From Bacilli bacterium (GTDB lineage: Bacteria > Bacillota_I > Bacilli_A > RF39 > UBA660): a stretch of DNA of 64,000 nt. Within the stretch, counting starts at the first letter, position 1; each line of letters begins with the position of its first letter. The notes below the pieces were generated by a model. That model was not told the DNA's origin, made no database searches, and was given only the letters and a program-made list of their open reading frames with translations. Shown in pieces: positions 16,401 through 61,000 of the stretch. Location: positions 323,098 to 387,097 of the forward strand of contig JAFWJA010000015.1 in NCBI GenBank assembly GCA_017511805.1. Reading direction: 5' to 3'. A program made the translations under genes and the position numbers.

Positions 16401-19400
16401 ACATCGGTATTCTCCATATTCATTGTTCCTCTACAAGGTGCATAGTAATCATCATAACCGTTTGTAATACTATGATGATTTGCATTAAATGTAGAATCAG
16501 AAATATTAACTATTCCATAGTTTTCTACATTCCATTCAGTATGTGTAAGATTACTTCCAGTTATATCAACTTCACCATCGTAATTATATATGTTAGAACC
16601 TCTTGTTCCACCCATTGTAGAATCTTTAACAATTATTTTTCTATATGAACCACTTCTATTATATATTCTGTCATTAATAATAGAATTATCAAATGTAATA
16701 GTACTTACTACACTTGATTGATTAGAATAGAATGATTCATTTGCAATACTATTTAATCTACTATTTTTAACAGTTAAATTATTATTAGTATCTTGATATA
16801 TATCTAATCCTTGACCATTTGAAGTAATATTATTTAATACTAAATCATTTATACTTCTATTATGAACATTTTTACTATTTGAAGAAGTATTTTCAAGCTT
16901 ATATCCTTTTATTTCGTCTTCGTTAACACCATCATTTAATATACCAATATTATTTGAAGAATACATGGCAATAGTACCTGATCCTTCAATAATATCACCA
17001 GATTCTGTATTATAAATACCTCTATTGCTATCTTTTAATCCTTTTAATATTCCATATTCTCCAATTGTTAATATACCTTTATTAGTAATAACATTGTATG
17101 ATCCAGCTTTATCTAGACTAATAATACCAGATTCTATATCAAGTTTAGCATCAAAATTATTAAATATTACAGAATTAGTTGTACTGGAAACATTTCCTGT
17201 AGGAATTGCATCTATCTTTATAGCATGTTGGTGTATAAACTCATTAAAGTTATATCTTGCAACATCAACATTATAATTTAGTTCAATTTCATCTGTTTTT
17301 AAAGTTCTATCATATATTTTAATACCATATATATAACCATTATAATTAGAACCACTTCCACCATCACGACCTAATCTAGTATTTGATAATGTACCCCAAT
17401 AATCTTTATTTGATCTCTTTTCTAGTTTTGTGCCATTATAATAAACTTCATAATCATCATTATCATAAGTAATTGCAATATGTTTAATTCTTCCATCTGC
17501 ATAATCAGATGGTAAATTAAATGTATAAGTACTTGTTGTTCCTACAATTATATATCCAGAATATACTCCAAATTCTATTTTTTCACTAGAATCTCCTAAA
17601 TATATAACTTGATTATTAGTATTTAATGGTTTAATTAATAATTCAACTGTTTCATTATTACCTGTAACAATTGGAGTATTAATAGTAGCATAACTATTTG
17701 ACCCATTAAAATACATTCCATTATCTTTATATGTTACATCTTGTAAACTAAAGTTATTACCATTACTTGAAATGTCTTCCCAAACATTTTCTGTATCTCC
17801 AGGATTTAATCCATCAAAGAATGCTAATAAGTTTTTATTATTATAATCACTAATACTATAAATGTTATTAGCATTTTCTATAGTTTTTTCTGATGCATTC
17901 TTTCTAATTGGATTTTTAGAATTAAATGTAATAGAATTTAGTGAACATCCAACAGTATAAGCACTTGGAGATGGTCCATGATAAACAATCATTTTGAAAT
18001 AATAATCACCTGGTTCATCTGGAGTTTCAACACTATAGTCATAACTCTTACCAGATGGAGTATCTATATCAAATTTTTCATAGGTTACAAAATCATCATA
18101 TCTATTTTCATCTGATGTAGAAAAACCAATATAAACATCACCCATATCTCCACCTACGTAATCATCATATGTAGTAATATTTCCTGTTACACTTCCATAA
18201 CTTGCTGAATTAATTGTTTCTTTATAAACAACTGAAGTCATTGTATTAGCATAACTTCTAACAACACTAACAGGATTATTACTATATCCAGAAGCATTAG
18301 TTATAGTAAAATTAGTATCTAATGATTCAACATTCATAGTATGTGCATCTGGATTTCCTCCACCTGCTATATAAATTTGATATGCTTCATCATATTCTTC
18401 ATCATATTGTTCTTGTAAATCAGATACACATTCTTCTGCAGCAGAAGTAATTCTTTGATATTCTTGTTCATATCTTATTAAATCTCTATTATAATCTGCA
18501 TCACTATGTACTAAATCATCTTCATATTTACTATCTATGATTTTCAAAGATCCATTATTTTTAATAACATAATCGTCTTTTGATGTAGTTAATGTATAAC
18601 CATTTAAATCAAGTACTACATCTCTTGTAGGTACTATTTCAAGTGGATTAGTTAATGTTATATTTCTAAGTATTTGAACTGTATCAACATCTTGATTCAA
18701 TACTGGGACGTTATATGTTGCAGTCGTAACTCTTGTAATATCATCAAGTTCTTCTACAGGGTATTCTTCTCCATAACTGTCTATTGAACCAATATAATTT
18801 ATAGTAAATTTATCATTTCCACGGCCAATACTACTATCTTTTCTATATCCTATATGTACGTAATTAATTCTACCTGCAGTTAAAGTAACTGTATAGTTTC
18901 CTGAAGATTCTCCTGATAAATATACAAATCTTCCTGTAGTATTATCATATTCTGGTGCTGTAGGATTGTCAGTAACAGTAATGTATCCAATATCACAATT
19001 TGATTCTGAAGAAATAGTTAGATTAAAGTTTAAATCTAAATCTTCTGCAACATTAGTCAAATCATATTCAAAATATGAATGTGCTGTAGAATAATCAACC
19101 CACGCATTATTATTTTCATAACCTCCTGCTCCATTAGGAACAAAATAATAATCACCATTTTGTGTTACATCAACTGATTCATAATCAAAACTATTCTTAG
19201 CTGTTTCTATTGATGAAATTATGAATGAATCTGGGTTAGATGCTCCTGTACCTGTACGTGCATAACATAAGTGAATATAGTTAATCTCGTTTGGTATCAA
19301 TTTAACAGGATAGTATTTATCACCAATATTTCCTGATATATAAATAGCTCTTCCTTCTTTATCATTCATTGAAGGCATATCACTATTATTTTTTACTGTT

Positions 19401-25369: not shown

Positions 25370-25466
25370 AACAAACACTTCCTATTTTCTATTATTTATT
25401 CTTATAATAATTATAACATTTTAGTAATAAAAATAAAAGAAAAAAAGTACATTTTTTTGTACTTTT

Positions 25467-30957: not shown

Positions 30958-31875
30958 ATGAAAAAAGTAATTATAGTATTATTTGTTATATTCATGTTTT
31001 TTGTATTTGATACAAGAATATTTAAAGATACAGCATATAATATTTATACTAAATTAGTTGATAAACAAGGTTATAGAATATCTAATAATCCAGATTTATT
31101 AAATCAGAATAATTACACAAAAAAAGATTATTCTAGTTATGCATCTACTACTGATAGTTTAACTGCTCATAATAAACAAGAATTAATTGATATATATTAT
31201 TCTGCTGTTAATAGTGGTTTTGATAGATTAACTTTTTATTGTGATTATCAATGTGATAATGATATTAATAATCTAAATAATAATGATGCTAACTTTACTT
31301 ATATTAATCAATTAGTTGGTGTATATAATACATATTCTAGTATTGAATCATCTTATACAACTAGTTTAAGAGTAGATTTAAATATTATTAGAAAATATAC
31401 TGAAGAAGAAATAGATAAAATAGATAAAAGAATAGATGAAATAATAATAGAACAAGGTATTAATAATTATGATAATGTACGTGATAAAATAAAAGTATTT
31501 CATGATTATATAGCTAATACAAATAGATATGATCAAGACATGGCTGAAAATAGAGAGTCTTTATATCATTCTGATACAGCTATAGGAGCATTATTTGAAG
31601 GAAAAGCAATATGTTCTGGATATTCTGATGCTATGAGTTTATTTCTTGATAAACTAGGATTAGAAAACGTTAGAATTGCTACAGAAGAACATGTGTGGAA
31701 TGTAGTTTTAATTGATGGAACTTGGTATCATATAGATTTAACTTGGGATGATCCTATTGTTACTAATGGTGGAGATATAATTCAATATGATTATTTCTTA
31801 ATAACTACTGATGAATTAAATAGTAAAAATGATATAGAACATCAATATAACGAAGAAGTTTATGACTTTATATAA
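30958..31875 (+). CDS. Transglutaminase-like cysteine protease-fold protein, secreted/membrane-anchored.
   Basis: Cys-His-Asp triad in context: GKAICSGYSDAMSLF ... EEHVWNVV ... WYHIDLTWDD. N-terminal signal/TM. Confidence 0.7.
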   Translation: MKKVIIVLFVIFMFFVFDTRIFKDTAYNIYTKLVDKQGYRISNNPDLLNQNNYTKKDYSSYASTTDSLTAHNKQELIDIYYSAVNSGFDRLTFYCDYQCDNDINNLNNNDANFTYINQLVGVYNTYSSIESSYTTSLRVDLNIIRKYTEEEIDKIDKRIDEIIIEQGINNYDNVRDKIKVFHDYIANTNRYDQDMAENRESLYHSDTAIGALFEGKAICSGYSDAMSLFLDKLGLENVRIATEEHVWNVVLIDGTWYHIDLTWDDPIVTNGGDIIQYDYFLITTDELNSKNDIEHQYNEEVYDFI

Positions 31876-42539: not shown

Positions 42540-43661
42540 TTACTTTCCCTTTAACTTTACAGCAGGATACGCTATATAAGGTATTCTTAATATCACTTTT
42601 CCGTATACTTTATTGGGTTTTACATACTTATTATCGGAAGTATTATTCATATCCCCTTTAGTGATATATGTTTTATCACTATTTACTTTAATAATTCTAT
42701 GGATTATTATTCTATCATTATCATCATAATACGCAATTACATCATTTTCTTTTAAGTTCTCTTTATCAACATATTTATTAATTATTACTGCATCTCCTAT
42801 ATTATAATTTGGAGACATAGATGCAGTTTCTATACCTATCATTTTAAATGGTCCAATACCAAATATTAATAAAACTAGTATTAGAATAATACCTAAGAAT
42901 ACATAATCTGATTTTTTTACTTTCCTATTTTTTTCTTCTTTTACTACTAGTACTTTTGAGGTAGATATAAGCATTGAAAATGGTAATATAAGTAATAATA
43001 ATGAATTAATATGATCATTTATATCCGGTACAACTGGTACTATATAAATATATAATACTGTTACTAATCTATATATCATACTAGCCTTAAAGTTATTTGA
43101 AGTATATGTTAAATATGATAACGCTATATTATTTAAAACAGTTGGTAAGAATGATAAAGTTATAAAATTAAATATAGTTTCTATATTATTAAATGAATCA
43201 AATCTTATTAATAAGTTAGTATCAAATATAATAAGTACTATTGTTAAAAGAGTTATATACTTTTTATTATCTTTATCTGCACTAATAAACATATATCTAA
43301 ATAGTTCTATACAAATATAAATAACCAGTATAAATATACTATTTTTAAATATATCTATTATGTTAATTGAATATGAGTTCTTAAGGAAACCTGTAATAAA
43401 ACCTATTAAATAATATATTAAAAAGAATAACAATAATTTAATAACAACATTTTTTATTATCTTTTTATTAGTATCATTATTAATAGTTTTTCTATACCCT
43501 AGTAATTTATATCCAAGAAATAATAAAATAAGACAAAAAACAGAAGTTAAACATTCGTTAAACTTCAATAAGTATTTACATATTAAAAATCTATGAATAA
43601 TAGTATATAGTAATACTAATATTAGTAAAATGTTATAACTTCTTTTTTTCATAATTATCAC
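42540..43661 (-). CDS. Polytopic membrane protein (about 8 TM) fused to a catalytically intact C-terminal SipW-type (S26B, ER/archaeal-type) signal-peptidase domain.
   Basis: C-terminal IETASMSPNYNIGDAVIIN ... NDRIIIHRIIKV ... ITKGDMNNTSD aligns with SipW SGSMEP ... VTHRIV ... KGDNN (Ser, His, Asp). The N-terminal ~270 aa are multi-pass membrane helices. Paralogous to 45227-46372. Confidence 0.6.
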   Translation of the reverse strand: MIIMKKRSYNILLILVLLYTIIHRFLICKYLLKFNECLTSVFCLILLFLGYKLLGYRKTINNDTNKKIIKNVVIKLLLFFLIYYLIGFITGFLKNSYSINIIDIFKNSIFILVIYICIELFRYMFISADKDNKKYITLLTIVLIIFDTNLLIRFDSFNNIETIFNFITLSFLPTVLNNIALSYLTYTSNNFKASMIYRLVTVLYIYIVPVVPDINDHINSLLLLILPFSMLISTSKVLVVKEEKNRKVKKSDYVFLGIILILVLLIFGIGPFKMIGIETASMSPNYNIGDAVIINKYVDKENLKENDVIAYYDDNDRIIIHRIIKVNSDKTYITKGDMNNTSDNKYVKPNKVYGKVILRIPYIAYPAVKLKGK

Positions 43662-43664: not shown

Positions 43665-44204
43665 CTAGTTTTCAATATAATTTAGTTCTATTCCTTTTTC
43701 TACTGTAAATGGAGTTGTACCTCCTAAATTAGGTAGATATTCTATTTTAACTCTTATAGTCTTTTCTCCATCTTTATTTAAAGTACTACCTACTGAAGGT
43801 AATCCTTCCATAGTATAATCTATATATGGGGTATCAATAATAGTACTATCTTCTGTACCAGTTAAATTAATAGAATCTAGTATAGCATTCATAGTACCTG
43901 AATTCTTTACTTTAACAGTAAATTCATAGAAATTACCTGGTTCATTTAATGTAATAACAAACGATAATTTATTTGGATGTTCTGGATCTATTCTTACATA
44001 ATTATTATTATCATTAGTAAATGATCCAGATGTAACAGATATATCTTTAAAAGAAATATCCCATCTTACTCCCCCAACATTTACATTTGCATCTATATTT
44101 AAAGATGCCATTAGTTTAGAATATCCTAAAGATATTCCACCTATTAAAACAATAAATAAAATTATGAAGTAATATCTATATTTGTATACAATACTTTGTT
44201 TCAT
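43665..44204 (-). CDS. TasA/camelysin-like secreted beta-sandwich protein with a SipW-cognate-like N-terminal signal peptide (paralog 1 of 3).
   Basis: N-terminal RYYFIILFIVLIGGISLGYSKLMASL. Core LNEPGNFYEFTVKVKNSGTMNAILDSINLTG resembles the TasA/CalY dlkPGDsvkkeFxlxNxGsL motif. Paralog of 44241-44807 and 46381-47061. Confidence 0.5.
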   Translation of the reverse strand: MKQSIVYKYRYYFIILFIVLIGGISLGYSKLMASLNIDANVNVGGVRWDISFKDISVTSGSFTNDNNNYVRIDPEHPNKLSFVITLNEPGNFYEFTVKVKNSGTMNAILDSINLTGTEDSTIIDTPYIDYTMEGLPSVGSTLNKDGEKTIRVKIEYLPNLGGTTPFTVEKGIELNYIEN

Positions 44205-44240: not shown

Positions 44241-44807
44241 TTAGCTCCTATTTTGAACATAATCTAGTTCTATAGTTTTAGTAAATGTGTAATCTGATCC
44301 TGGTAACTCTTGTGCTGTTATATCAAGAGGATACTCTACTCTAATAGTTACAGTATTTTTATTAGCTGCACCTACATTTAGTACGTCTCCTACTGATGGC
44401 ATACCAGTTACAGAATAATCTAGATATGGTATTTCTGCTATTTGAGCAGGTGTTAATCCTGTTTCTCTAATTGCATCTAATTTAGCAGGTAATGTTCCTT
44501 CATTTACTATATCTACTGTAAATTCATAGAAATCACCTGGAGCATTTAATGTAACTGTATAAGTAACTTTAGTATCATCATTTGCATCTATTACGGCAGT
44601 ATTATTACCTGAATTTAAATATGAACCTTCTGTGACTTGTATATTACTAAAATGTACAATCCATTCTGTCTTACTTATTTTAGTATTACCATTTATTTGT
44701 AATGTTGTTTGAAGTGCAGAATAACCTAAACTAACTCCTACTAACAAAAGCAAAAAAACTGGTATTAAAAACTTTTTATTTAATAATATATTTTTCTTCT
44801 CTCTCAT
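44241..44807 (-). CDS. TasA/camelysin-like secreted protein (paralog 2 of 3).
   Basis: NKKFLIPVFLLLLVGVSLGYSALQTTLQ signal. LNAPGDFYEFTVDIVNEGTLPAKLDAIRETGL core. Confidence 0.5.
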   Translation of the reverse strand: MREKKNILLNKKFLIPVFLLLLVGVSLGYSALQTTLQINGNTKISKTEWIVHFSNIQVTEGSYLNSGNNTAVIDANDDTKVTYTVTLNAPGDFYEFTVDIVNEGTLPAKLDAIRETGLTPAQIAEIPYLDYSVTGMPSVGDVLNVGAANKNTVTIRVEYPLDITAQELPGSDYTFTKTIELDYVQNRS

Positions 44808-44844: not shown

Positions 44845-45174
44845 CTAATTTTTTTTAAGTATAAAAGTATAAATTTCATCATTATTTTTTACATAAAATT
44901 CACACTCTTTACTATTCATTATATAAAATATTGGTTTTTTTTCTCCAAACTTAACATTTACTAAATCATCAAAGTATTTAGCTTTAACTATTTTTTTATT
45001 TTTAGTATCTATTTTTTTAGCTAATTCTACTAAACAATAATCATATAATTTAAATATTTTAGTAATACTATTTAAATATGGATCTTTACTAGAACTAGTT
45101 ATTAATAGTAATAAAGATATTATTAATAAAACTATTATTACAAACGAAAAAGATATTTGCTTCATAAAAAGCAA
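44845..45174 (-). CDS. Small single-TM protein, paralog of 47825-48151 (both have an (E/H)EC(E/I)F motif).
   Basis: N-terminal TM ISFSFVIIVLLIISLLLLI. ...SKECEFYVKNNDEIYTFILK compares with ...EHECIFVIEDKYNNLICIVK. Confidence 0.4.
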   Translation of the reverse strand: MLFMKQISFSFVIIVLLIISLLLLITSSSKDPYLNSITKIFKLYDYCLVELAKKIDTKNKKIVKAKYFDDLVNVKFGEKKPIFYIMNSKECEFYVKNNDEIYTFILKKN

Positions 45175-45226: not shown

Positions 45227-46372
45227 TTATTCGTTTAAATCTCCTCCTACTAAATTCTTAAACCATATAGTTGGATATGCAATTTTACCTATTCTAAAAT
45301 CTACATATTTACCTAATACACTTTCTTTAGATATTTCTTTATATGTTTCTTTTTTATCTTGATCTATTTCTTTAGTAACATAGATCTTACCATTTTCTAC
45401 TTTAGTTATTTTTTCAATAACTATTTTATTATTTTCTTTGTACGCTACTATATCATCTATATGATAATCTTCATATGATACCTTTTGATTTATCATAATA
45501 GCGTCACCCTTATTAATACCACTTATTGTACTCTTTTCTACTCCAATTAAGTAATATTTAAAGAATCCTGATATTAATCCTATTACTATAGTAAAGAATA
45601 TAATTAGTACTATATCTATTACTAATCTAACTATACTTATATTCTTTTTATCTTTATCAAAATTATTAATATATCTATAAGAATATATAAATATTAATGA
45701 AGGTAAAACTATATTACAAATAGATGTTAAATAGTTACCTAACATAGGTTTATAAGTACAAATATAAGTATATAAACATAATGGTATTACATATACAATA
45801 CATGGATAATAGCCTACTTTCTTAGTTAAATAAGTAAGCATTATATTTTTAATAACAATTGGAAGCATTGTAACTGTAATATAAATAAATATATTTTTAG
45901 CAGTTATATCAAATCTATATATATTTAGTATTAAATCAAATATAATTATTAAGAATGTCATAAAGTAGATAGTACTCTTATTATCTTTATTATTACTTAC
46001 ATAATTATATCTAAAGAATTCTAAACATAGTACTGATATAAAAGGCATAATACTATTTTTTAATATAGAGAAAAAATCGCTAGAAAAAACATCTCTACCA
46101 TAACCAGTAAATATACCAAGTAAATATATTACTGAAAAATATATTAATAAACCTACTGCAACCAGTTTAATTATCTTTTTATTTAAAGTACTAAATTCAA
46201 ATATTTTAAAATCATATATAATATAACTAATAAGAGCTATAGTTAGTATAAATATTGCACTTATAATTGATGAATAACCTTGAAAAAATGTAAATACAAC
46301 TGAAAAATATAAAATTATAAAACTAATAAAAGATATAATAAACAACCTATTTTTATTCTCTATTGAATTCAT
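45227..46372 (-). CDS. Paralog of 42540-43661: polytopic membrane domain plus a SipW-like domain in which all three catalytic positions are substituted (predicted pseudo-peptidase).
   Basis: Aligned segments: EKSTISGINKGDAIMIN (catalytic Ser becomes Thr, Pro becomes Gly). KIVIEKITKV (His becomes Glu). VTKEIDQD (GD(N/M)N becomes EIDQ). The TM domain conserves KNSI..CxE(L/F)FRY, NKDNK, IIIFD, LPxVxxNIxL(S/T)YLT. Confidence 0.55.
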   Translation of the reverse strand: MNSIENKNRLFIISFISFIILYFSVVFTFFQGYSSIISAIFILTIALISYIIYDFKIFEFSTLNKKIIKLVAVGLLIYFSVIYLLGIFTGYGRDVFSSDFFSILKNSIMPFISVLCLEFFRYNYVSNNKDNKSTIYFMTFLIIIFDLILNIYRFDITAKNIFIYITVTMLPIVIKNIMLTYLTKKVGYYPCIVYVIPLCLYTYICTYKPMLGNYLTSICNIVLPSLIFIYSYRYINNFDKDKKNISIVRLVIDIVLIIFFTIVIGLISGFFKYYLIGVEKSTISGINKGDAIMINQKVSYEDYHIDDIVAYKENNKIVIEKITKVENGKIYVTKEIDQDKKETYKEISKESVLGKYVDFRIGKIAYPTIWFKNLVGGDLNE

Positions 46373-46380: not shown

Positions 46381-47061
46381 CTACTTCTCTATATATGTTA
46401 CTTTATATGTTAGATTTAATTCCTGATCTGTATCAGGTAAATCTTCTACTTCTATATCTTCTAAATACTCTATTTCTAGATGTATTTTTTTCTTTTCACC
46501 TACTAATAAAGTATCTCCTTCTTTAATAGTAGTTCCATCTTTATAAGTTACTTTATATTTAATATATTTCATTTGAGTAGAATTAAGACCAGTTAAAACA
46601 GTATCATATATTTTTGCATCTATATTACCATTATTAACAACATCTACATCAAATGAATATTTTTCACCAGGTACTCTTAAATATATAGTATAGTTTACTT
46701 CAGTTTTATTACTTAAAATATGAGCATCAGTTATTGCTTCAATAGAATCAGCATCTACTTCAAGATTTTCAAATTCTATTTGCCAATTTATATTAGAAGG
46801 TTCTATTACTGGTACACTATCTTTTCTTGTTGGAGTACTAGAACTAGATCCTCTATTATTACTTGTATCAGATTTATCATCTTTTTTATCATCAGTCTTC
46901 TTATCATCTGTAGTAGGATTATCTGTTGGTTCTAAATATTTATTGTTATTCATTTTAACGCCAAAATTACTTGCTAAAGATGCATACATAAACGTAATTA
47001 CTATTAACAATAATATAAAGAATATTGGATAAAAACGACCTTTTTTATTATCATTATTCAT
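46381..47061 (-). CDS. TasA/camelysin-like secreted protein (paralog 3 of 3) with an extra low-complexity D/K/S-rich linker after the signal peptide.
   Basis: RFYPIFFILLLIVITFMYASLASNF signal. LRVPGEKYSFDVDVVNNGNIDAKIYDTVLTGL core. Confidence 0.5.
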   Translation of the reverse strand: MNNDNKKGRFYPIFFILLLIVITFMYASLASNFGVKMNNNKYLEPTDNPTTDDKKTDDKKDDKSDTSNNRGSSSSTPTRKDSVPVIEPSNINWQIEFENLEVDADSIEAITDAHILSNKTEVNYTIYLRVPGEKYSFDVDVVNNGNIDAKIYDTVLTGLNSTQMKYIKYKVTYKDGTTIKEGDTLLVGEKKKIHLEIEYLEDIEVEDLPDTDQELNLTYKVTYIEK

Positions 47062-47124: not shown

Positions 47125-47835
47125 TTAATCTATATTATCAATAAGTAATTTATCATTTTTAATAGTATATGTTACTTTTATTTCTCCATCTACTTTTCCA
47201 TACTTATTTATATTGTTATCATCTATGAATTTTTTAATATTTTTAACACTACCTTCTCCATTTAAATACTTATTTAAATCTTTAATATCTATAATAGCAT
47301 CAGTATCTTGATTTAAACCAGAATAATAATTTAAAACATCATATGGATTATCTACTACTAGTTTTTTAAAAGTAGAAACATACTTATTAGTAATATTTTT
47401 ACCTATACTACTTTGACTATATTTAATAATCTTTTTAGAAGCTATATCCTTTTTAGTCAAAACATTATTATATTTATACTGATTTATTTCATGAGTAATT
47501 CCTTCTTCTGCCATCTTACTAGTAATACCTATTTTTTCTAATTTATTAATATTATAATCCACATTAAAATAGTTATTAATAGTGTTTAAAATTTCATCAT
47601 CAGTAAAAGTATTCTTATTCTCTTTATCACTTAAATACTTAATAGCAAAACTAATATATTTACCTTTATCATCAGTATCTACTACTTCATCTAAATAGTC
47701 TCCTATTTCACTATTAAATTCATTTATTTTAACACTTTCTAAACTAGATAATCTTCTATTAACAAAGAATAATACTAGACCTGCAACTACTAATAAAACT
47801 ATTACTATTTTAAATACCATTGTCTTATTTTTCAT
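47125..47835 (-). CDS. Signal-anchored extracytoplasmic protein, paralog of 48194-48997.
   Basis: N-terminal TM. Shared core: KYISFAIKYLSDKENKNTFTDDEILNTINNYFNVDYNINKLEKIGITSKMAEEGI versus KFILFALKYHYYQEDKNTLTSTEISDFINDIFDIEMNPKDVKNIGVSPIMAESGV. Confidence 0.45.
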   Translation of the reverse strand: MKNKTMVFKIVIVLLVVAGLVLFFVNRRLSSLESVKINEFNSEIGDYLDEVVDTDDKGKYISFAIKYLSDKENKNTFTDDEILNTINNYFNVDYNINKLEKIGITSKMAEEGITHEINQYKYNNVLTKKDIASKKIIKYSQSSIGKNITNKYVSTFKKLVVDNPYDVLNYYSGLNQDTDAIIDIKDLNKYLNGEGSVKNIKKFIDDNNINKYGKVDGEIKVTYTIKNDKLLIDNID

Positions 47836-48151
47836 ACTCTACCTCTTTTACTATACATATTAAATTATTATATTTATCTTCAATAACAAAAATGCACTCA
47901 TGTTCTTTTAATTCATATATTATTTTCTTATCTAATTCATAACTAATTTTAATTATATCATCAACATTTTTTAAATATATATTCTCTTTATCTTTCAATT
48001 TATAATTATCTTTTTTTATTAATATAGAACTATATGTTTTTATTATATTATTTATATATCTTTTATAATCTTTTTTAATATAATTTTTATATATTAAATA
48101 AAGAATAATTATAACTAATAATGTAACACCTAATATTATATATTTAATCAT
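47825..48151 (-). CDS. Small single-TM protein, paralog of 44845-45174. Its start overlaps the downstream gene by 11 nt.
   Basis: N-terminal TM IILGVTLLVIIILYLIY. Overlap 47825-47835. Confidence 0.4.
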   Translation of the reverse strand: MIKYIILGVTLLVIIILYLIYKNYIKKDYKRYINNIIKTYSSILIKKDNYKLKDKENIYLKNVDDIIKISYELDKKIIYELKEHECIFVIEDKYNNLICIVKEVEYEK

Positions 48152-48193: not shown

Positions 48194-48997
48194 CTACTTT
48201 ATTTCGTAGATTTTTAATTTATCATTATCACCAATTGTATAAGTAATATAAACAGTATCTAGTTTTTTAGCACATTTACTTAAATCAAAGTCACTATTAT
48301 TTAAGAAATACATTATCTTATTATAATCACCTGTTTGTAAATATTCTTTTAAATATGATACATCTATCATATCTTCTTCTTTTTTATCTATATTATATTC
48401 TAATATATAGTTAAACAATTCTAATGGATTTTCTATTAAATATTTAGTATATTTAACTTTATATTTAGATTTAGAAGATTTACTTATGCTATCTATTTTG
48501 TAATAAATAACTGATTTAGTTTCTAATTCTCTTTTATTAGTATTATCTATAGAAATAGTATATGAATCATTATCACTATTATATATAACTCCTGATTCTG
48601 CCATAATAGGACTTACACCTATATTTTTTACATCTTTTGGATTCATTTCTATATCAAATATATCATTTATAAAATCAGATATTTCTGTACTTGTTAATGT
48701 ATTTTTATCTTCTTGATAATAATGATATTTTAATGCAAATAATATGAATTTATCATTCGAATCACTATCGGTATTCTCTATTTCATTAATATAGTTAACA
48801 AAGGGAGTAGTTTCTTTTATTATCTTGTTCTTTTCTATATCTGAGACACTTCTTGTTACTAAGAAATATACTAGTGTAGATACTAGGAACACTAGTATTA
48901 GTATTCCTAGTACTACATAGTTAATATGTTCTTTTATATACTCTTTGTTACTAATCTTTTTTATAAATTGTTTTATGTTGTTAAATATCTTTTTCAT
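48194..48997 (-). CDS. Signal-anchored extracytoplasmic protein, paralog of 47125-47835. It is the first gene downstream of the giant gene, 8 nt away.
   Basis: Short cytoplasmic N-terminus, TM VVLGILILVFLVSTLVYFLV, and a ~220-aa external domain. Confidence 0.45.
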   Translation of the reverse strand: MKKIFNNIKQFIKKISNKEYIKEHINYVVLGILILVFLVSTLVYFLVTRSVSDIEKNKIIKETTPFVNYINEIENTDSDSNDKFILFALKYHYYQEDKNTLTSTEISDFINDIFDIEMNPKDVKNIGVSPIMAESGVIYNSDNDSYTISIDNTNKRELETKSVIYYKIDSISKSSKSKYKVKYTKYLIENPLELFNYILEYNIDKKEEDMIDVSYLKEYLQTGDYNKIMYFLNNSDFDLSKCAKKLDTVYITYTIGDNDKLKIYEIK

Positions 48998-49005: not shown

Positions 49006-52000
49006 CTACTTCATGAATTCTAGGATACAGTAATTATATCCTGTCAATTCATCTATCTTAGTAACAACTTGATAGTTCTTATCTGTTGCTGTTGTTATAT
49101 CTCCGTTTACTCTTGGTGATGTAGAACCAATTATATAACCATCATAGAATTTAAATGTTCCATTTCCTTGGCTGATACCTATACCAGTAGTAGTTCCAAT
49201 AGCTTCTATATATGGATTAGTAATTGATACATCAGCATTTTCTGTACCTCTACCATCTTCTATACCAAGTACTACTGATCCTCTTGTAATATAGATACCA
49301 TATGCTATATTACCTGAAGCATGTATTGATCCAGTTTCTATAGTTATTTCTCCGCCTTCTGCATATAATCCATAAGATGCACTTTCTGTATCATGAACTG
49401 AAATATTAACATTATTTAATACTGGAGAACCATCTACAGAATATACACCACCAGCATATTTAGAATTATATGTTTCTATAGTTCCACCAGTCATTCTAAT
49501 TGAACCAGATGTACTATATAAACCATATGCATTATTAGAATTATATGCCTTAATAGTAGCATTAGTAACATTAGATGTATTTTCACTATTACTATCTATT
49601 GCTGAGGCAATTTCCGCTCCTGAAACAGTAAACTTATCGCGAGTAGAATTTAAAATACTTGTATTATGAATAACATTAAGTTTTTTATTTCTTTCATTAT
49701 TAAGATTATGAGTTAATATATATTCATTATCAGTTGATATTAATGTACCACTGTTATCAATAGTTGATATTGTAATATCAGTTTCATAGTAATTATTAGC
49801 ATTAGTGTGACTAATAGTAGAATTACTAATTGATAATATTCCAGTATTAGTAATAGTAACTTCATTGCCTTCAGAAGTTGTTTGATATGTAATAGTAGTT
49901 CCATCAATAGTAGTATTACCAGCATTATCTATAAACTTAGTAATAGTACCACCATTAATTATTAGTTCTGCATTTGTCTTAGCATTACTAATTTGACCAT
50001 TAATATTAGTATTAGTAATTGTTGTTCTTTCAGTTGAGTACTTATAATAAGCAATTTGTCTTGATGTTAATGTACAATTTGAAATATTTTCTAGATCTGA
50101 TGAATTACTATAGATAGCATATAGATCACCTTTAATAGTAGAATTTGTTAATGTCATTTTACCATTGTTAATTATACCTATATTATCTACATCTAAATCA
50201 ATATTATCTATAGTCATAATACCATTAGTATCATTCTTAATCGCAGTATCTCCTATTATTTCAATATTACTTATATTTAATGTTCCATTATTTATAATAG
50301 ATGATTCTGATGATCTAGAATTTATAATAGAATTTGTTAATTCACTAGTAATTGTTAAATCACCGCTATTATTAATTGGTTTAAATGTTCTTAAAGTATG
50401 ACCATTTAGATCTAGTGTTAATCTTACTCCATCATATATATAAGATTCATGAGATAAAATTGTATCATCTAACAATTCAATAACATCATCATCATTTACT
50501 TCATTAAATGCTTGTTGAATATTATTATATGTCTTATCTTGTGTCTTATTATGGATAGTATAAGAAGATTCTACTAAGTACGCTATATTCGAATAATCTT
50601 GAGTATAGTTATCTTCAGATTCATATGCATACATAGTTTTATTAATTAGTCTTGGATTTCCAATAAATCCAGTACCACCACCTGCTGGTCCATAATATCC
50701 TGCTGCTCCTCCATAGAAACCACTTCCACCACCAGACATATAATTGTTTGAATTATTAGTTTTATTAGAACCAAATCCAAATGATGGATATATTTGACCT
50801 GTGTTAGCATTTGTCATAGTAGCATATCTACACTTAGTATATGTTCCTGGTCTATTTGTTGTAGCACCATTACCATAGTTTTCACATACACCATTCATTG
50901 ATTTTGCATTACCTGCAGTAAGTCCTCCAGCATGTCCTCCGTCACCAGAGTAATCTGGATATAGTTCGTGAGTAGAAGAACCTCCTCCACCACCTGCAAC
51001 TATTAAGATTGCATTTTCGGCACCTGTTAAATATCTTAATGTGTTAGGATTTGTAGCTATTGATGTTGCTCCTCCACCACCAGCATAAACTCCGTTATAC
51101 TTCATAGTTGAAGAGTTATATTGCCCTGCTGCATATCCACCACCATTATATCCATATGTTGTACTATAAGTCATTTTTCTACATGATTGTGTAGTACATC
51201 CATCTGGTGCTTCAACATCAACACTTTGTCCTTGACCACCTACTGCTATATATAATGTCTCATTCTTATCAAGATATACTTCACCTACTGAATAGCCTCC
51301 ATAACCTCCAGTATTTGAATTACCTAAATATGAAGTATTTCCTCCTTGAGCTCCCCATACCTCAAGTTTATATTTACCTGGGCAATAGATATCAAGAGTT
51401 TGCATTCCATTAGTATGATCATATAAATAAACATTATTTACTAAACTTTCACAATATGCATCTGAATAAGCATATTTTGCATATAATATCATTGAATTTT
51501 GTACTAATGTTTCTGGTGTAACTTTAGTAGAGAAATCTGAATCTATATACCAACCTTTAAATATTAGGTTACTATCTGTATTAATAGGTTCAGGAATGTT
51601 TCCAAGTGCATCACCACGATTATAAATTAATGTATTATCCTCAATTGTTCCAACACTTGATATTAGATTTACTTCAATTTGTTTAGCATTAGCTTTTCTC
51701 TTAATATAAGTAATCTTAGCATATCCATCACCAGTGTTACCAGTCATTGTATATGTACCATCATATGAAGGTACTTTTGAACCACCACCTAATAGTGTAG
51801 TATCGTACATATAATATTTGGATCCTACTAGATATCCAGATGGTTTATATGATGTTGCTGTTAATACGTAGCCAGATCCTCCACCGCCACCTTGTTGGGC
51901 CATTGAAGAACCGCCTCCGCCGTACCAGCCACCGCCTCCGGCTCCACCGACATATGATCCACCTTGTCCAAATGAACCATTTCTACCAGCACCAGTTTGA

Positions 52001-55000
52001 GTACCTCCGTCACCAGCGTCGGACCAATAACCATTCCAGCCACCACCTTTAGAACCAGATTCGCCACCACCGGCACCTCCACCAGATGCTGTTCCAGGGC
52101 CTCCGCCTCCACCAGCGACAATAATTCTAGAATATAAACTACTTGTAAGTCTAATATCAGTAGCTCCTCCACCCATTATTGTACCAGGGCCAGAGCCTCC
52201 TCCATTATAACCTCCATTAGTACCAGAAGTTCCTACATATACGAATAATTCTTGACCTAAAGATAAATCTATATAACCAGCAGAATATCCACCATTTGCT
52301 CCACCTTGAGCTCCCCATACTTCTAATTTATATGTACCTGTACACATAGAAGTAAATTTTTGAGAAGATTTAGTAGGTAAATATGTATATTCTCTTCCTA
52401 TATAGTCTTCACAGTTAATATTTTCATATATTTGATCATCTGGATCAATACTAACTGAATTATCTTCATATGTTATTCTTGCATAACCATTACCTTCTTT
52501 AGCAGTATTAGCAATTGGTTCTGCACTAACATCTTCTGTATTTCTATTTTTATACTTTTGTAAGTACATTTGCATTTCATCAGTTGTTTCATATACTTCA
52601 TATCCTTCTCTAATAATATCTATACTATCAGGAGTTCCTTTTATATATCCTTTTAATATACCAGAATAGAAATATACTTCTCCATCTAATCTATATACAC
52701 TATATAGACCACCTTCAATAGAAGGATTTTCAATAGAAACAGAATCATTTTCATTTCCTATTACTACAAGTGAATCTTCATTATTTTGATATATACCATA
52801 TAATTCACCTATTATAGAACCAGTATTAAATTGTAATGATTTTCTACTAGTTTGTGTATTACCTATATATACACCAATGTTTTTAGAACTAATATTTGTA
52901 TTATTAAGTACCATATTTGATTCATAAGTTGCTGCATATATACCATAACCAGTATTATTACCAGTAGTAGTAATATCAACATTAGTTAAATTTAGGTCAC
53001 CACTATATACATTTATACCTGTATCTTTAGCAGTAATACTTGCATCTGTAATAGTTAAACCAACCATTGTATAGATACCTGTACCTACTTCATTAGTTAT
53101 TTCTATATCATTTATATCACATGTTGCATTTGTACCACAATAGATGCCATATTCAGAACCAGATCCTCTAGATATAATAGATACATGATCTATATCTATA
53201 TCACTATAAGCAAAATAGATTCCTGATTGACCAGATTTAATTGATGTATTATATATTTTTACATCATTACGTCTTTCAGCAGTATTCTTACTAGTTGAAT
53301 CATAATATCCTCTTCCAGTTCTTGCAATAAGATCACTTTCATTTATAGTAACTATATTATTACCGTTACCATTATTCATGTATACTGAAGTATAATCGGC
53401 ATTTATTTTTGTATTATAAACGCTAATTGTCGAGTTATATGAATTTGAATAAATACCATATGATCCTTCTAAAGTAGAATCTGTTACATTTAAAGTAATA
53501 TTTTGTCCATTATCAATATAGATAGGATTTGAACTACTTTTAATAGTAGCATTATTTCTTACATCTATAACTGCTCCATTAACATGATTTGATATAGCAC
53601 CATTATAACTTGAGGTAGATAATGTAGAAACAGTTACATATTCTACTGTTAAATTCTTATAATTAGCTACACCACTAGTTTTTATGTTTTGTAAAATACC
53701 ATTTTTAGCTTCACTACTATCTGTAATTATTAAGTTTGAATTGTTTGTAAATGTTTCACTCATAACTAATTTTTTGTTATTTAAATCTAATGTAATATTT
53801 TTACCAGCAGGTATTGTTACTGCATCCGGAACTGAAGCACTTGCTACTACTTTAATAGTACCATTAGCATCTATTGCATCTATAGCATCATCAAAATTAT
53901 CATATCTTTCTCCATCTACTTCTAAGAATCCATCTCTTGATGATAGATAATTTAATACCCAAATATTACTAGCAACATTATATCCAGTCATATGTGCATT
54001 TGATAATCTTGGATTTCCAATATAACCAGATCCTCCACCTCCACCACTATAATCGTTGATTACTGATGTTGATGATTGATCATTTGTTCCACCGGAACCT
54101 CCGCCGTACCAACCTCCGCCTCCGGCTCCACCATAAACTCTATTTTCTACATTTATGGTAGTATCTGCACCTTTACCAAATGTTCCTATTCCTTTTTCAG
54201 GATGTAAGTTATTATGTCCACCTTCAGTTTGTGTACCACCGGTACCATAGTTAGCAAATGTACCTGTATTAACAGAACCATCATTAGCTATATAGCCTCC
54301 TCCTGCTCCTCCAGTACCTCTGTTATAACTTGTAGAGTAATATGAGCCTCCTCCTGCTCCTCCAGCAACTATTAATATTGAATCTTTATTATTTTCTAAT
54401 TCATATAGTTGTCCTGAAGCTGTGGCAATATGTGTAGCTCCTCCACCTGAAACTGATGTAATTTGGTATGAAGACCAATTATTAGTAACTGAACCTCCAC
54501 CATTATATCCACCATCAGCGGTACCAGTTCTACTATTTAAGATTTGTCCTTGTCCTCCAACATTTATATAAAGTGTTTCTCCTTGAGTAAGTTCTATTTC
54601 TCCTTGTGAGTAACCACCTTGTGCTGCAGGGAAATTACTTGTATTTGATGTAGATGTTCCTGCACCCCATACTTCAAGTAAGTATTTACCTGTACATGGA
54701 ACATTAAATGTTTCTTCACCATTAATATATTCATAATCATATACATCGTTTGTATAACATAATCCTATATCTTCACCTAAATATGTAATTCTAGCATAAC
54801 CATTACCAGTTTTAGCAACATCACTAGTTGCTGCACTAGATACTTTAGTTGTACTATAAGTTCTTGTTTTTAAATCTTCTTCAGATGATGAACTTTCTTC
54901 AACAATATCATGATTTTGTCTTAAGTTAACAATAGTACCAGAATATCCATATTTACGTCCTTTTAGAACACCATTATAGAAACTAGTAACAGCACCAGTA

Positions 55001-58000
55001 TATTGAACTCTAACACCATATTCTTGTCCAATAAATACAGGATCCACTTTATTTAATTCTGCATCTTTATCACCTATAGTCACTTTAGCATTAGTTCTAA
55101 TATCTAATCCTGAAACTGTACCTTCATAAGTACCACTATTAAATGTGTAATTACCTCCCGCATATACATCAACGGCAGTTCCTACACCTTTATAAGTACC
55201 ACCATTAAATACTACAGTACCAGAACTATATAAATATAAACCAGTAGATTTTTCTGATTCTACATTACAATTATTAAATGTACCATTATTCGTTCCACTA
55301 GATAGATATATAGCATTATAAGTATTAGCAACAAAACTAGAATTTTCAAATAAGAAGTTAGTAGTTGATCCTGAAGAATAGTTATAATAAGCATAGTTTT
55401 TACCAGTTAAAGTAGAATCTTTAATATTTAAAGTAGATGAACTTCCACTAGTAAAGTTAAAATAAATACCATATGAATTATTAGAAGTTAAAGTACTATT
55501 ATCTATAGTTAAATTAATTCCTTTTCCATAATTATATACTACTTCGTTATTTGATGTTAATTCTGAATTATCAATAACAACTACTTGATTATAATTAGTA
55601 TTTATAAGATTAGCAGTAGTAGTTATTTTTGAATTTAGAATATTAACTTTACCACCAGTTGTAGTAGAAGTTATTACATTTTTACTAGAATTAACAACAA
55701 TTCCATCCATAGTGAATGTACCTTTGTTTTCAATAACTCTAGTTAAACTATTTGTTATTTTTCCAGTTTTATCATCACTATTATCTACAATAGTAAATGT
55801 TCCTTTATTAACAAACTCACTTCTCATAGATAATGTATTACCATCAAGATCTAATGTAATATTTTTACCTAATGGTATTACTGATTGCTCTGATAATTCT
55901 ACATCTTTAATAACATAAATAGTTCCTTCTTCATCAATAGCATCTACAGCATCTGCAAATGAATTAAAGTATTCATCTCCAACTCTTAAGAACACTTCTC
56001 TATCTTCTAGATAGTTTCTTACATAAGTTCTTATTAATGCTTTTACATTATATCCATACATTATTCCATTTTCAATTCTTGAATTAGCTATGTATCCAGA
56101 ACCACCACCAGAAGTTACAGTTACAGATTTAGTACTACCACCACCGTAGTAGCCTCCTCCACCTGCATTACCCATAGTTCCATAACTATCAGCACCTCTA
56201 CCAAATGATCCTTTACCTTCTTCAGTAGAACTACTTTGATCAAATCCTGGACCTACTTGTGTACCTCCAGTACCATAGTATATAGATGGTGTACCACCCA
56301 TATATCCACCACCGGAACCACCATAATGTTCATTATATGAACCATTACCATATATAGTTCCACTAGCTCCACCACCACCAACTATAAGAATTGAATCTTT
56401 GTTATCTTCAAGTTCACTTAATAATCCTGGTGCTGTTGCAATATGAGTTGCTCCACCTGATCCATATATTGTTAATCTAGTGCTACTAGAACCAGTGTAT
56501 GTATAATCATTAATGTAAATATCTCCGCCACCATTATATCCACCTTTAACAACATATGTACCTGATACACTATTTTTATATTGACCTTGTCCACCTACTG
56601 TTATATATAAAACTTCATTTTCAGTAAGTTCTATTTCACCATATGAATATCCTCCATATGATCTATTACTATATGAAGCTGAACCCCATACTTCTAATTT
56701 ATATCTTCCAGTACATGGTACTGTAAATTCTGCTGTATTACCTGTATAACCATAAGTATATTCTTGATTATTTGTACAAGTTTCATTAGTTTCACCAATA
56801 TAAGTTATCTTAGCATAACCTGGACCTGATTTAGCATAATTTGATGTAGCTGTTTGACTATAATTAGTAGTAGAATTAGTATTCCAAATATCTGCTTCTG
56901 GAATAGTTTCTATTTCTTCAGCAACTACCTTACCTCTTCTTAATTCTCCAAGAGACATATTAAAACCATAAGTAGAACCTCTTAATAAACCATTATAGAA
57001 ATTAATTATTGTTCCACTAATAGCATATACGCCATATATTCCTCCAGAAATATAAGGATCTTCTTTAGAGTATTCTTTACTCTTATCTCCTATATTTACT
57101 ACTGTTACATTTGAAGAAGTACGAATACCATAGGATTTACCTACTATAGAACCACTCATAATGTATGCTGTATAACCACCAACATTAATACCTGTTCCTT
57201 CAACATCAATATCACAATCATAAACATAAACGTTATTAGAACCAATATTAATACCTGTACTTGATGATCCTCCTCCAGAAACATTAACATTTGTTAAAAT
57301 GTATTTATAATTAGTATTTGAACTTAGTGTGATTCCTGTATAACTAGTATTTTTTGCAAGATTTATAGTTACATTATTTATTATTGCGTCTTTTTCAACG
57401 TTACATGAACTTAATATAACACCATCTGTATTATTAGTATTAATAGTTACATTTTCTAATACTAATTCATATGCAGTACCAATTTCTATTGGATGTTCAC
57501 TAACACTAGTTGAAGTATGTTCAAAAGTACCTCCATGAATATATATATAATTACCATTAGAAGCAACAAGGCCAAATGTTTTTCCTTTAAATTCTCCAGC
57601 ATTAATTGTTAGAGTATTTGGACAATCTTGATACTGATTAGTGCTTTTTGTAGTATATGCTCTAACATTTATTGCACTTTCATTAGTAGAAGTAACTTTA
57701 CCATCATTTATTGTAATTGTATTACCTTTTAGATTTTGAGCATCCAAATATGAATAAATACCAGTTTTATATGATTTAATTTCACCATCATTCATTGTGA
57801 AATTAACTTTACTATAATGTAGATTAATACCATATATATCTTGATTATTTGATGTATCAATAACAACTGTACCACCAATAGTTAAATTTTTTGGTGAATC
57901 AATACCAGAAATAGTACCTGATTCTAATGTAAGTGTCTCAGTTTGATTATTATATATTGCATAGTTATTATCTGATTTAATTAATGTATCTCCTGATGTA

Positions 58001-61000
58001 GTAACAGTACCATTTGTATAAATAGTATAGTTATCTATAGTTGTTAATTCTGCATCATTAAGTATTAAATCTCCATTATTTAAAACTGCATAATTATCAG
58101 AGTTCTTTTCATGGAACTTAATATTTTCTAATGTTAATGTACCATTATTATTAATAGTAGAAGCACTATTAATAATAGTATTAGTTTCTTCAGAATTATA
58201 TATTTTAAGAGTACCATTATTTGTAAATGTATCTCCTATTGAGAAACTATGACCATTTGTATTAATAAGAATATTAGCATTTTCACTTACATTAAGTGGA
58301 TATGTTGCTTCAAAGTTATCTCTTCTTATAAATATTTCATATCCAGTCTTAGTAGCAGTATCAATAGCATCTTGTAATCTAAAGAAATATTGTGTTCCTC
58401 CTACTCTAGTTTCTGCAACTGCATTGTCAGGATTACCAATTAGGTAAACTCTTTGGCAATCCTTATCAATGTTATAGTAGTTATATATAAAGTATCCTTG
58501 TGGTACTTTATCAACTTTACCATTAAGTGCTACATCACCTTCAATGTATCCATCATAGAAGTTAAACCTACCACTTTGTTCTAGACCAATATCAGTACCT
58601 ATGATTTTGACATTATCTTCAATCATATCTCCATCATTATCACCTATTGTAAGATTTCTTCTATTATCAAGAGCAGTTCCATTAGGATTTTCAATAGTAC
58701 CATTTATAAGAGTTAAATCACCATTATTGATTACTTTACCTGTAATAGTATAGTCATTTAAATCTAATGTAACTGTTTTTGTATTAGTTGATTCTGCTTC
58801 TGTTACATTCTTAATTAATTCAATAGTATCTCCATCTTTTGCTTCATCAAATGCTTCTTGAACTGATAAGAAGTAATCCGTATCTATTCTAGCAACTGCA
58901 TTCTCATCAATTTCCCATATAGCAGTAACTGTTATATCTTTTAATCCTACTGTTATTACATATGGATCTTGCTCTGTACCAGTTCCAGATAGAACACTTG
59001 GATCATTTACTTCCCATCCTAAGAAGTTGCATCCACGCTTTGTTGGAGTTAATAATGTATATGTTTCTTCATATTTCTTATAGATTTCTCTTATATCTTT
59101 ACTTCCATCATATACACCATAATTAGGATTTATTGTAATAATTAAATCTGTTTCTTTATTTCTAATTGCTTCTTCAGATAAACTTTGTAGATATTTCTTT
59201 TCACTTTGAATATCTTGTTCTGTTCTTATTCTTGAGTAATCCGCAATTTGATTTATTTCTCCTTCAACCGCTTTAGTACCTTCTATGTAACCATCGTACA
59301 TAATTAAATTACCTTCATTAACTATAGTAGTAGTTTCACTAATTATTCTTATATTAGAACTTGATACATTACCATCATTTTCTCCTAGAATAACAGTACC
59401 ATAATTAATTATTGTATTCTTATCAAAGTTTTGAAGAGAGCCATTATATACATTAAATGTACCACTATTAATTAATTTAGTTGTAATACTATGTTTATTT
59501 AAATCTAGTGTTACATAACCACCAGTAGGTATTACTAAATCTTCAGATACAGATTTTAATAATTTAATTGTATCTCCTTCTTCACACTTATCTATTGCAT
59601 CTTGTACAGTTGAATAATAAACTCCATTTAATAATGCAACTGTATCTCCTTGATAGTCATGACCCATGTACTCAAGTAATGCATATTCAAATCCAGTATT
59701 TTCATCAACATATGTAGTAACTTCGTATTGATATTCAACATTAGTAGTTGTTTCTGGTTTAGCAAATTTACTTGCTTCAATAATACCATCATAGAAGTTA
59801 AATGCACCATTTATCTTTTTAACACCAATACCTCTATCACCTTGTACATAGATTAATGGATCAGTTGTAGATACATCTGCAGTTTCTCCTCCAGTACCTT
59901 CATAATGTCCCATTTCAAATGTACCAGTATTAGCATATACACCATAAGCATTAACTGCTCTTTCTACATCTATCTTACCAGATAATATAGTTGCTTTAGC
60001 ATTAGCGCTATTTGAATATATACCATATGCCACACTACCACCAGTAACATTTATTTCAGAATCTGAAATAGTTATATCGCCAGTACCTTGGTTAGTAATA
60101 CCCCTATATTCATAAGTATTATTTAATGAACCAATATTAATTTTAGAATTATTTTGAATAGTTAAATTCTTAGTATTTAATATAGCTTGCGAATGTTTAC
60201 CAACATCTGATTTATTAACTAAGATATTAGTATTATCTATAGTCATTGTACTAGAGTTACTAATTGCAGTATCTAAACTACTTTGTGATGTAGAACCAAT
60301 TGTATTTGTATAAGTTGATCCTATTAATGACATAGTACCAGTATTAGTAATCTTAGAATTATTAATATTTGAATTCGATACTGTTAATGTACTAGTAGAA
60401 TTTTGAATATTACTATTTATAGTACATGTATCACATGTAGTTTCATTAGTACCAGAATTATAGAATACTCCAGTTAAAGTAGTTCCTGTTATATTAACTT
60501 CTTTATTAGAATTATTATAAATACTATAATTAGTTCCTGTATATGTGCCATTATTAATGGTAAGTGTACTTGTGTTATTTACTGCAATCTTATTAGCTTT
60601 AACTATAGAATTATTTATAGTAGCATTACCAGAATTTGTAATACCAGATACACTATCTACATTAATATTATTTGCATTTAAAGTACCTTCATTATTAATT
60701 ACATAATTAGAAGTACTTGTGTTCTTAAGACTAACATTACTAATATTTAAAGTATTCTTGTTATTAATAATACTAATAGAACCAGATGTCTTAATTGATG
60801 CTTCAGTTTGTGCATCATTTGTAATAGTCATATTACCATTATTAGTGATAGTCTTATTAGCAGATATAGTATATCCTTTAAGATTTAAAGTAAATGTTTT
60901 ATTATTAGGAATAGTTAAATCGTAATATAATGGAACATTTGTTAATAATTCAATTGTTTCATTAGTTCCTACTTCACTAATAGCACTTTGTAGATTACCA

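Follow-up and report, generated by a model that had tools for sequence, protein, structure and literature searches.

Why would a gene cluster keep, alongside a signal peptidase with an intact active site, a second copy of the same protein in which every catalytic residue has been lost? The question arises from a stretch of 64,000 nucleotides (contig JAFWJA010000015.1, positions 323,098 to 387,097; hereafter the window) in a low-GC (~25%) metagenome-assembled genome (MAG; locus tags IKF36_*) of an uncultured "Bacilli bacterium". Two multipass membrane proteins are encoded there, which we call A (373 amino acids (aa), 42540..43661) and B (381 aa, 45227..46372). Both lie in one co-directional minus-strand cluster spanning 42.5-64 kb of the window, and the gene coordinates given for the window below refer to that strand unless stated otherwise. 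An earlier note on this DNA had read A as an active SipW-like peptidase and B as a pseudo-enzyme, for example a substrate-holding or scaffold partner of A. Here, we report that B belongs to a conserved clade of non-catalytic homologues whose invariant partner is the gene for a small linker-type subunit immediately upstream, rather than the active copy. With a probability of roughly 0.55, we propose that B serves this subunit, without catalysis, as receptor, chaperone, or anchor in a TasA/AbpX-like fibre system, and that it has been maintained after an early single loss of catalysis.

B is a paralogue of A without the catalytic triad

A and B are paralogues: BLASTP aligned them with 33% identity and 57% positives over 349 aa (E=9e-48), a similarity far beyond chance. 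Both have about nine transmembrane (TM) helices followed by an extracytoplasmic S26 domain of the endoplasmic reticulum (ER)/SipW type. The multipass motifs previously noticed in the pair, KNSI..C(I/L)E(L/F)FRY, (D/N)KDNK, (L/I)IIFD, and LPxVxxNIxL(S/T)YLT, were all present in both proteins.

A matched TIGR02228 (archaeal/ER-type signal peptidase (SPase) I; 1.2e-21) and PF10502, both above cutoff, and aligned with human SEC11A/C through the motifs GSMEP, HR, and TKGDNN. This alignment identifies Ser281 (codon at 42819-42821), His321 (42699-42701), and Asp337 (42651-42653) as the catalytic positions of A, and the triad that the earlier note had seen in this gene is indeed intact. In SipW, the catalytic residues are Ser47, His87, and Asp106. 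The listed GTG start of A (MIIMKKRS...) is probably three codons early; Met4 (ATG at 43652) is the start in 92% of the homologues in the active clade described below.

B, by comparison, matched no model in Pfam or NCBIfam. Pairwise and multiple alignments agreed in placing Thr282 (45527..45529) in the catalytic Ser column and Glu320 (45413..45415) in the His column, so the reported changes from Ser to Thr and from His to Glu were borne out. The Asp column is alignment-dependent: BLAST paired Asp337 of A with an Asp of the EIDQD segment through a one-residue gap, and MAFFT paired it with Glu335 of B. Under either alignment, the T-K-G-D-x-N box is destroyed in B, where residues 333-338 read T-K-E-I-D-Q (45359..45376), and no Asp is conserved at this site across the B clade. 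What had been claimed of EIDQD holds for the loss of the GDxN box, with the exact pairing left to the choice of alignment. The S26 homology of B (MEROPS S26B/TIGR02228) runs through its 33% identity to A across the domain, while other members of its clade match PF10502 themselves. Measured against the catalytic triad of ER-type SPase I, A carries all three residues (S281/H321/D337) and B does not.

Conservation and selection in the dead clade

A homologue search with B yielded 108 proteins (P0001-P0108), which were aligned. Ser, His, and Asp were absent without exception from P0001-P0045 (37-100% identical to B, 379-412 aa) and present in all of P0046-P0108. In a neighbour-joining tree, the dead set was monophyletic (50/50 terminals) and nested within the active family, with a sister group that includes A. 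This topology points to one ancient catalytic loss following duplication in the B clade.

The Ser column is variable in the dead clade (A/T/K/N/L/E/S/Y/D) vs 100% Ser in the active clade, and the His column is 77% Asp and otherwise E/A/Y/S vs 100% His. Within the C-domain, conservation confined to the active clade falls exactly on the catalytic boxes (S281, M282, H321, R322, T334, K335, G336, D337, and D343), and all of these positions are replaced in the dead clade, which has conserved C-domain residues of its own (S281, Y311, Y344, Y356, K363, A365, and F371). The loss of the triad that was seen in B, and for which the earlier note had suggested an alignment of orthologues, thus holds clade-wide. 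Two ways of rescuing catalysis were ruled out: Thr282 does not qualify as a substitute nucleophile, its column being hypervariable in the clade, and neither does a Ser/Lys dyad, as the His column is never Lys and the +1 Lys is not conserved. Ser281 of B, one residue before the nucleophile column, is 93% conserved in the dead clade, without a conserved general base.

Selection was estimated gene by gene as the ratio of non-synonymous to synonymous substitution rates (dN/dS; Nei-Gojobori) against locus L011, which holds the whole orthologous cluster at about 88% identity. The ratio was 0.17 for the whole of B, 0.14 for its multipass domain (residues 1-270, 46372-45563), and 0.21 for its dead pseudo-peptidase domain (residues 271-381, 45562-45230); for the latter, comparison with a 75% orthologue in L013 gave 0.36. 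A had a ratio of 0.12 as a whole and 0.078 in its active domain, and the remaining genes of the cluster ranged from 0.15 to 0.37. The dead domain is therefore ~2.7-fold relaxed compared to its active counterpart, yet under clear purifying selection. No truncations or frameshifts occurred among the ~50 clade members, down to 37% identity, and mean column identity was 0.64 in the dead domain and 0.61 in the multipass domain. As judged from these sequence comparisons, B is a conserved non-peptidase homologue and decay is excluded, in agreement with the earlier note, which had preferred a pseudo-enzyme to simple decay; the full-length, monophyletic clade without triad, a dN/dS of 0.21-0.36 in the dead domain, and a confident structural model (mean predicted local distance difference test score (pLDDT) 89.8) all support this.

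A further protein, P0203 (L020:536-1669), shares 30% identity with A and 26% with B and falls outside the B clade. It has likewise lost Ser, His, and GDxN, and its gene lies in a similar context to that of B (subunit, dead copy, DUF5305, subunit). With this protein, the apparent losses of catalysis in the multipass peptidase family number at least two.

Predicted fold and topology

The AlphaFold2 (AF2) model of B, built on a 76-sequence alignment, had a pLDDT of 89.8 and a predicted template-modelling score of 0.85. It places nine TM helices in residues 2-268 and, after them, a beta-rich C-domain in residues 273-361. According to the positive-inside rule (K+R 11 vs 4), the protein is oriented N-in/C-out, and the C-domain is predicted to be extracytoplasmic. 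Weak matches to PF10502 were found in 66 of the 76 family members, including many dead ones (e.g., P0025-27).

When a profile of the multipass domain (residues 1-270) was searched against 1.84 billion representatives, it recovered 1,624 clusters at 50% identity, almost all of about 375-390 aa and with the same fused architecture; 126 of the top 148 matches were positive for Ser, His, and Asp. A and B share the multipass signature G86, G90, E118, R121, P171, Y181, P209, and P224. Within it, Glu118 and Arg121 (46010..46021; CLEFFRY motif, on TM4 near the cytoplasmic face) are invariant in dead and active clades, and being common to A and B, they cannot explain the functional split between the two. 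In one relative, P0202 (812 aa), a ~500-aa C-terminal region resembling 5'-nucleotidases/metallophosphatases (GNHEFD motif) follows a multipass domain and the beginning of an SPase domain; this may be a chimeric gene call or a genuine fusion.

The multipass domain had no Pfam family in the 76 members scanned and no sequence relative in the PDB by profile search. Its sole sizeable fold match in Foldseek was Rce1 (4cad_C; probability 0.72, E 0.63, 254 aligned columns), with template-modelling scores of 0.36 on the query and 0.49 on the target. Rce1 carries a Glu/Arg pair on TM4 near the cytoplasmic face; the wider CPBP family is marked by the motifs EExxxR, FxxxH, and HxxxN, and its catalysis needs two His. 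Rce1/CPBP proteins and the multipass domain are thus alike in being multi-helix bundles with a Glu...Arg motif on TM4. However, the register differs (EExxxR vs ExxR), PF02517 was absent in all 76 members, and no conserved His was found in the multipass domain in the alignments, so that membership of the CPBP/Rce1 family is not supported.

Genomic context of the dead copy

To place B in context, we read the loci around dead-clade genes (L001-L005, L008-L019, L021, and L022) and classified their open reading frames (ORFs) against the window proteins. A scan with the dead-clade alignment contributed only three species genomes, and a metagenome scan six loci. In about 12 independent lineages the gene preceding the dead copy could be seen, and in each of them it was an orthologue of the 226-aa linker-type subunit of the window (46381..47061), directly upstream. 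The gap between the two genes was 0-9 nucleotides; in the window, 8 nucleotides separate the stop of the subunit gene from the start of B. A DUF5305 gene followed the dead copy in most loci, and a giant ALK_LTK_GRD protein (6,500-7,700 aa) was encoded nearby in nearly all, with giant homologues flanking the dead copy in L001, L003, L005, L009, L010, L014, L015, L018, L021, and L022. L021 represents a minimal operon of giant, linker-type subunit, dead copy, and DUF5305 gene, with nothing else related within 10 kb downstream.

An adjacent active multipass copy, in contrast, was found only in the lineage of the window and L011 and in L001/L002. No active copy was present in the readable flanks (up to about 10 kb) of L003/L004/L022, L005, L009, L010, L014/L021, or L015. 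The partnership with A that had been suggested for B is therefore matched by gene order in the two lineages where A and B are adjacent, and not in the others. What the dead copy always had beside it, wherever the upstream gene could be seen, was the gene for the linker-type subunit rather than the active copy. The same MAG offers a second case in L005 (10001-11167; P0011, IKF36_01935), a dead-clade copy 51% identical to B. Its cluster encodes a 7725-aa giant and proteins of 264, 254, 183, 187, and 226 aa; it has no adjacent active peptidase and no DUF5305 gene following the dead copy, and the 183-aa ORF, which lies upstream, is a short DUF5305-like one. In the active-clade loci L006 and L007, the order is canonical small subunit, active peptidase, DUF5305, presumably the ancestral arrangement. 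Neither a sortase nor an LPXTG protein was encoded in any locus examined.

In the window itself, the cluster begins with a giant repeat protein (>4990 aa, 49006..64000), followed by a 267-aa protein (48194..48997), a 108-aa DUF5305-like protein (47825..48151), a 236-aa protein (47125..47835), the 226-aa linker-type subunit, and B. Downstream of B lie a 109-aa DUF5305-like protein (44845..45174), two canonical small subunits of 188 aa (44241..44807) and 179 aa (43665..44204), A, a zinc-ribbon membrane protein, uvrC, and mutL. The 179-aa subunit is 39% identical to the 188-aa one and is encoded directly upstream of A in conserved synteny. The 236-aa and 267-aa proteins are membrane-anchored paralogues without any Pfam or NCBIfam family match, conserved in L005, L009, and L011.

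Subunits, DUF5305 proteins, and giant proteins

The linker-type subunit of the window consists of a signal anchor, the strand motif MYASLASNFGVKMN, a ~50-aa linker rich in Asp, Lys, Ser, and Pro, and a beta-sandwich. Across the family, a signal anchor is followed by the conserved segment I-A-Y-A-S-L-A-x-N-x-G-V-K-x-N, usually a linker rich in Pro, Lys, Glu, and Thr that reaches up to about 100 aa or more, and a C-terminal beta-sandwich. The canonical small proteins combine a signal anchor, G-Y-(A/S), the strand A-L-x-T-T-L-x-I-N-G-x-T-K-I, and a beta-sandwich with a PGDFYEFTVD motif. In the 188-aa subunit, the signal anchor leads into LGYS-ALQTTLQINGNTKI and then the beta-sandwich, and its AF2 model (pLDDT 84) comprised a helix plus a sandwich.

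Both DUF5305-like ORFs of the window matched PF17231 below the gathering cutoff (E=4.6e-6 for the 108-aa and E=3.4e-4 for the 109-aa protein) and cover only the TM and cytoplasmic part (profile positions 124-217). Relatives elsewhere have 187-373 aa and are full-length in L003, L006, L007, L020, and L021; the window lineage seems to have lost the extracellular half or to have had it split off.

The reading frame of the giant continues past the window end; the protein is longer than the listed 4874 aa, and its N-terminus lies outside the window. It contains beta-helix-like repeats and Gly-rich blocks (GGGGxGGxxGG...GGGGSGY), which match ALK_LTK_GRD in homologues, and the giants share the C-terminus ...NYQV.T..DE...Y.YCILEF(I/M)K. 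The sole visible N-terminus, that of the L001 giant (14273-21185, 6772 aa), is a complete subunit module with signal anchor, LGYAFLSRTLNINGNTRI, and PGDFYEFTV beta-sandwich, fused to >6,500 aa of repeats. This module suggests that the giant joins the structure, or is attached to it, through the assembly chemistry of the subunits, possibly as the tip or cargo of the fibre.

Comparison with known systems

Dedicated ER-type signal peptidases are a recognised hallmark of TasA-superfamily fibres in bacteria and archaea. The SipW-TasA-TapA system of Bacillus subtilis and the haloarchaeal TafD-TafG pair resemble the present cluster in having such an enzyme beside fibre subunits. SipW and TafD differ from B in being active and in having 2-4 TM helices. 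In B. subtilis, it is TapA that plays the accessory part, a protein that, unlike B, is not a peptidase homologue; TapA is said to act as an accessory nucleator or anchor through strand complementation. For the haloarchaeal tafi, the dedicated SPase TafD is needed for TafA processing and fibre formation, and tafi loci pair TafD with TafG, a DUF5305 protein (PMC11821415).

The cluster also matches the recently described AbpX loci of bacteria and archaea. These loci have an SPase I of their own, with "ten transmembrane helices", and next to it a DUF5305 protein described as an "SPase I accessory"; minor subunits, tip proteins, and anchors complete the set (bioRxiv 10.64898/2026.01.04.697558). Like the window cluster, they unite a multipass domain fused to a TIGR02228-type SPase with a neighbouring DUF5305 gene, small signal-anchored beta-sandwich subunits, minor subunits, and large tip-like proteins. 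The ten-TM description fits A and its multipass family of 1,624 clusters, while the model of B has nine TM helices plus the SPase domain. Two differences stand out: the AbpX peptidase is described as a processing enzyme, unlike the dead B, and AbpX subunits have an aromatic-2/acidic-4 donor-strand signature, of which no conserved form was present in the predicted mature N-terminus of the subunits here (ALQTTLxINGxTKI). That preprint of January 2026 does not mention inactive, pseudo-, or catalytic-residue-lacking copies (bioRxiv 10.64898/2026.01.04.697558).

The closest functional precedent is SipA (LepA) of Streptococcus pyogenes and related streptococcal pilus islands, although B is not a member of the SipA family. 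SipA keeps the SPase fold but not the catalytic Ser/Lys, and S. pyogenes needs it to polymerise its pili; the peptide-binding cleft, which SipA retains, has been suggested as the site where a pilus component binds (PMC4049620). Like SipA, B is an SPase-fold protein without catalytic residues, encoded inside a surface-fibre cluster, with the fold retained under selection. SipA is of P-type (Ser/Lys) ancestry, has a single TM helix, and serves sortase-polymerised pili, whereas B is of ER/archaeal (Ser/His/Asp) ancestry, has a 9-TM domain, and is tied to one subunit gene in a sortase-less cluster of donor-strand-fibre-like appearance. In the PDB sequence searches, SipA was the top but non-significant match both of the C-domain of A and of the dead-clade profile. 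What appears to be new here is a dead fibre-locus signal peptidase in the ER-type multipass lineage of TasA/AbpX-like loci, the precedent for a dead SPase being SipA.

Proposed role of B

Given the conserved fold and the strict synteny, we infer that B binds the linker-type subunit, does not cleave it, and acts as its anchor or chaperone. In the sequence of events that we propose, duplication of a module of subunit, peptidase, and DUF5305 gene would have given rise to the ancestor of B, and Ser, His, and the GDxN box would have been lost once, early in the clade. B would then have been kept as a membrane protein with an extracytoplasmic peptidase-like domain that no longer cleaves. As the ligand of B, the linker-type subunit, encoded just upstream and probably co-translated, is the most likely candidate. 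SPases bind their substrates as an extended strand, and binding by B would therefore amount to a natural strand capture: the dead domain, the multipass domain, and DUF5305 together may hold the signal anchor and N-terminal strand (IAYASLAxNxGVKxN) in the former substrate groove. Two outcomes can be envisaged. Either B tethers the subunit at the membrane as a base that carries the giant subunit-fused protein, or it presents the subunit for donor-strand assembly, much as SipA is proposed to chaperone its pilus component.

Several observations weigh against this proposal. Hardly any linker is present in the subunits of L003, L015, and L022, and spanning the wall can therefore not be a universal role. 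The linker-type subunit also retains a plausible SPase site (x-Y-A|S) and may simply be cleaved by an active enzyme; its sequence fits a subunit that is held uncleaved as well as one that is cleaved elsewhere and then held. Direct tests gave weak support to the TasA-like label that the earlier note had attached to the small proteins. In the Foldseek comparison of the 188-aa model with the PDB, the TasA fibre 8aur (probability 0.95, E=0.027) appeared beside adaptin ears and VP28 of white spot syndrome virus, matches of orthologues to PF12389 (camelysin/TasA) were sub-threshold (E 1.5e-3 to 6e-3), and a small-subunit profile searched against PDB sequences returned nothing meaningful. The context favours the label, and assignment of the subunits to the TasA superfamily, which is characterised by a jelly-roll core and an N-terminal donor strand, is plausible mainly from that context.

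A more specific version of our proposal is tentative and, in our estimate, rather doubtful. Here, B would be a membrane "socket" that shields the linker-type subunit from cleavage and provides a sortase-independent anchor for the megadalton giant via donor-strand complementation. The Pro/Lys-rich linker of the tethered subunit would cross the cell wall, and the giant would be attached with or without major subunits. If true, this would constitute a new, pseudo-enzyme-based way of anchoring surface fibres in monoderm bacteria that apparently evolved at least twice (B clade and P0203).

The broader proposal, of B as receptor, chaperone, or anchor of the linker-type subunit, makes a dead peptidase locked to one subunit gene and to giant adhesin-like proteins a candidate for fibre nucleation or anchoring in uncultured gut and rumen Bacilli. 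If it is correct, the SipA-type idea of a dead signal peptidase as a fibre assembly factor would extend to another peptidase lineage and another fibre chemistry, as a clean case of convergent pseudo-enzyme recruitment. The dead copies also carry a caveat for annotation: the genes have no family match, and some relatives are labelled "signal peptidase I" despite lacking that peptidase mechanism.

Alternative explanations

Among the alternatives, the one that survives best, though still unlikely, is that B is a non-catalytic subunit of a heteromeric SPase complex with A, tuning or widening substrate specificity as eukaryotic accessory subunits do. A and B stand in one operon in the window, L011, and L001/L002, both keep the same multipass signature, and DUF5305 proteins have been suggested to be accessory subunits of SPases. 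However, most dead-clade loci, including L005 of the same genome, have no active copy in the readable flanks, and the gene that is always next to the dead one encodes the linker-type subunit rather than A. A partnership of B with the active enzyme is thus possible where both genes co-occur, and is not the general rule.

We consider it improbable that B is a protease with non-canonical residues, working either through Ser281 with the Asp/Glu of the His column or in the manner of Rce1/CPBP through Glu118 and Arg121. The first version draws on the 93% conservation of Ser281 and on the Asp or Glu found at the His column in about 80% of the dead clade. Ser281 is, however, one residue off the nucleophile position, and the His column reads Ala, Tyr, or Ser in P0007, P0011, P0013, P0016, and P0038-42; alternative catalysis is unlikely because no general base is conserved. 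The second version draws on Rce1 as the only large fold match of the multipass domain and on the invariant E/R pair on TM4, against which stand the absence of PF02517 in the members scanned, the lack of a conserved multipass His, the Foldseek E of 0.63, and the equal invariance of Glu118 and Arg121 in active copies.

Another reading with little in its favour holds that B works through its multipass domain alone, perhaps as a membrane platform for signal-anchor helices, and that the C-terminal domain is a tolerated vestige. The multipass domain is indeed somewhat more constrained than the dead domain (dN/dS 0.14 vs 0.21), but the dead domain remains at 0.21-0.36, is never truncated in ~50 members, has clade-specific invariant residues (Y356, A365, and F371), and is on a par with the multipass domain in mean column identity (0.64 vs 0.61). 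The loss of all catalytic residues and the lack of Pfam/NCBIfam matches might suggest a duplicate on its way to becoming a pseudogene; this reading of B can be dismissed in view of the intact ORF, a dN/dS of 0.17, conservation to 37% identity without frameshifts or truncations, and strict synteny.

Other features of the window

A second giant ORF (10391-25378, 4995 aa) was considered as a second system of this kind and rejected; it appears to be an unrelated surface protein. It has an ordinary N-terminal signal peptide and a C-terminal TM anchor, resembles the first giant only weakly and at the level of repeats, and lacks both a subunit module and peptidase neighbours. An Rfam scan of the entire window detected no RNA families. 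Between positions 30000 and 32000, the GC skew changes sign locally and GC falls to 0.218; this change coincides with the sole sizeable mid-window ORF on the plus strand (30958-31875).

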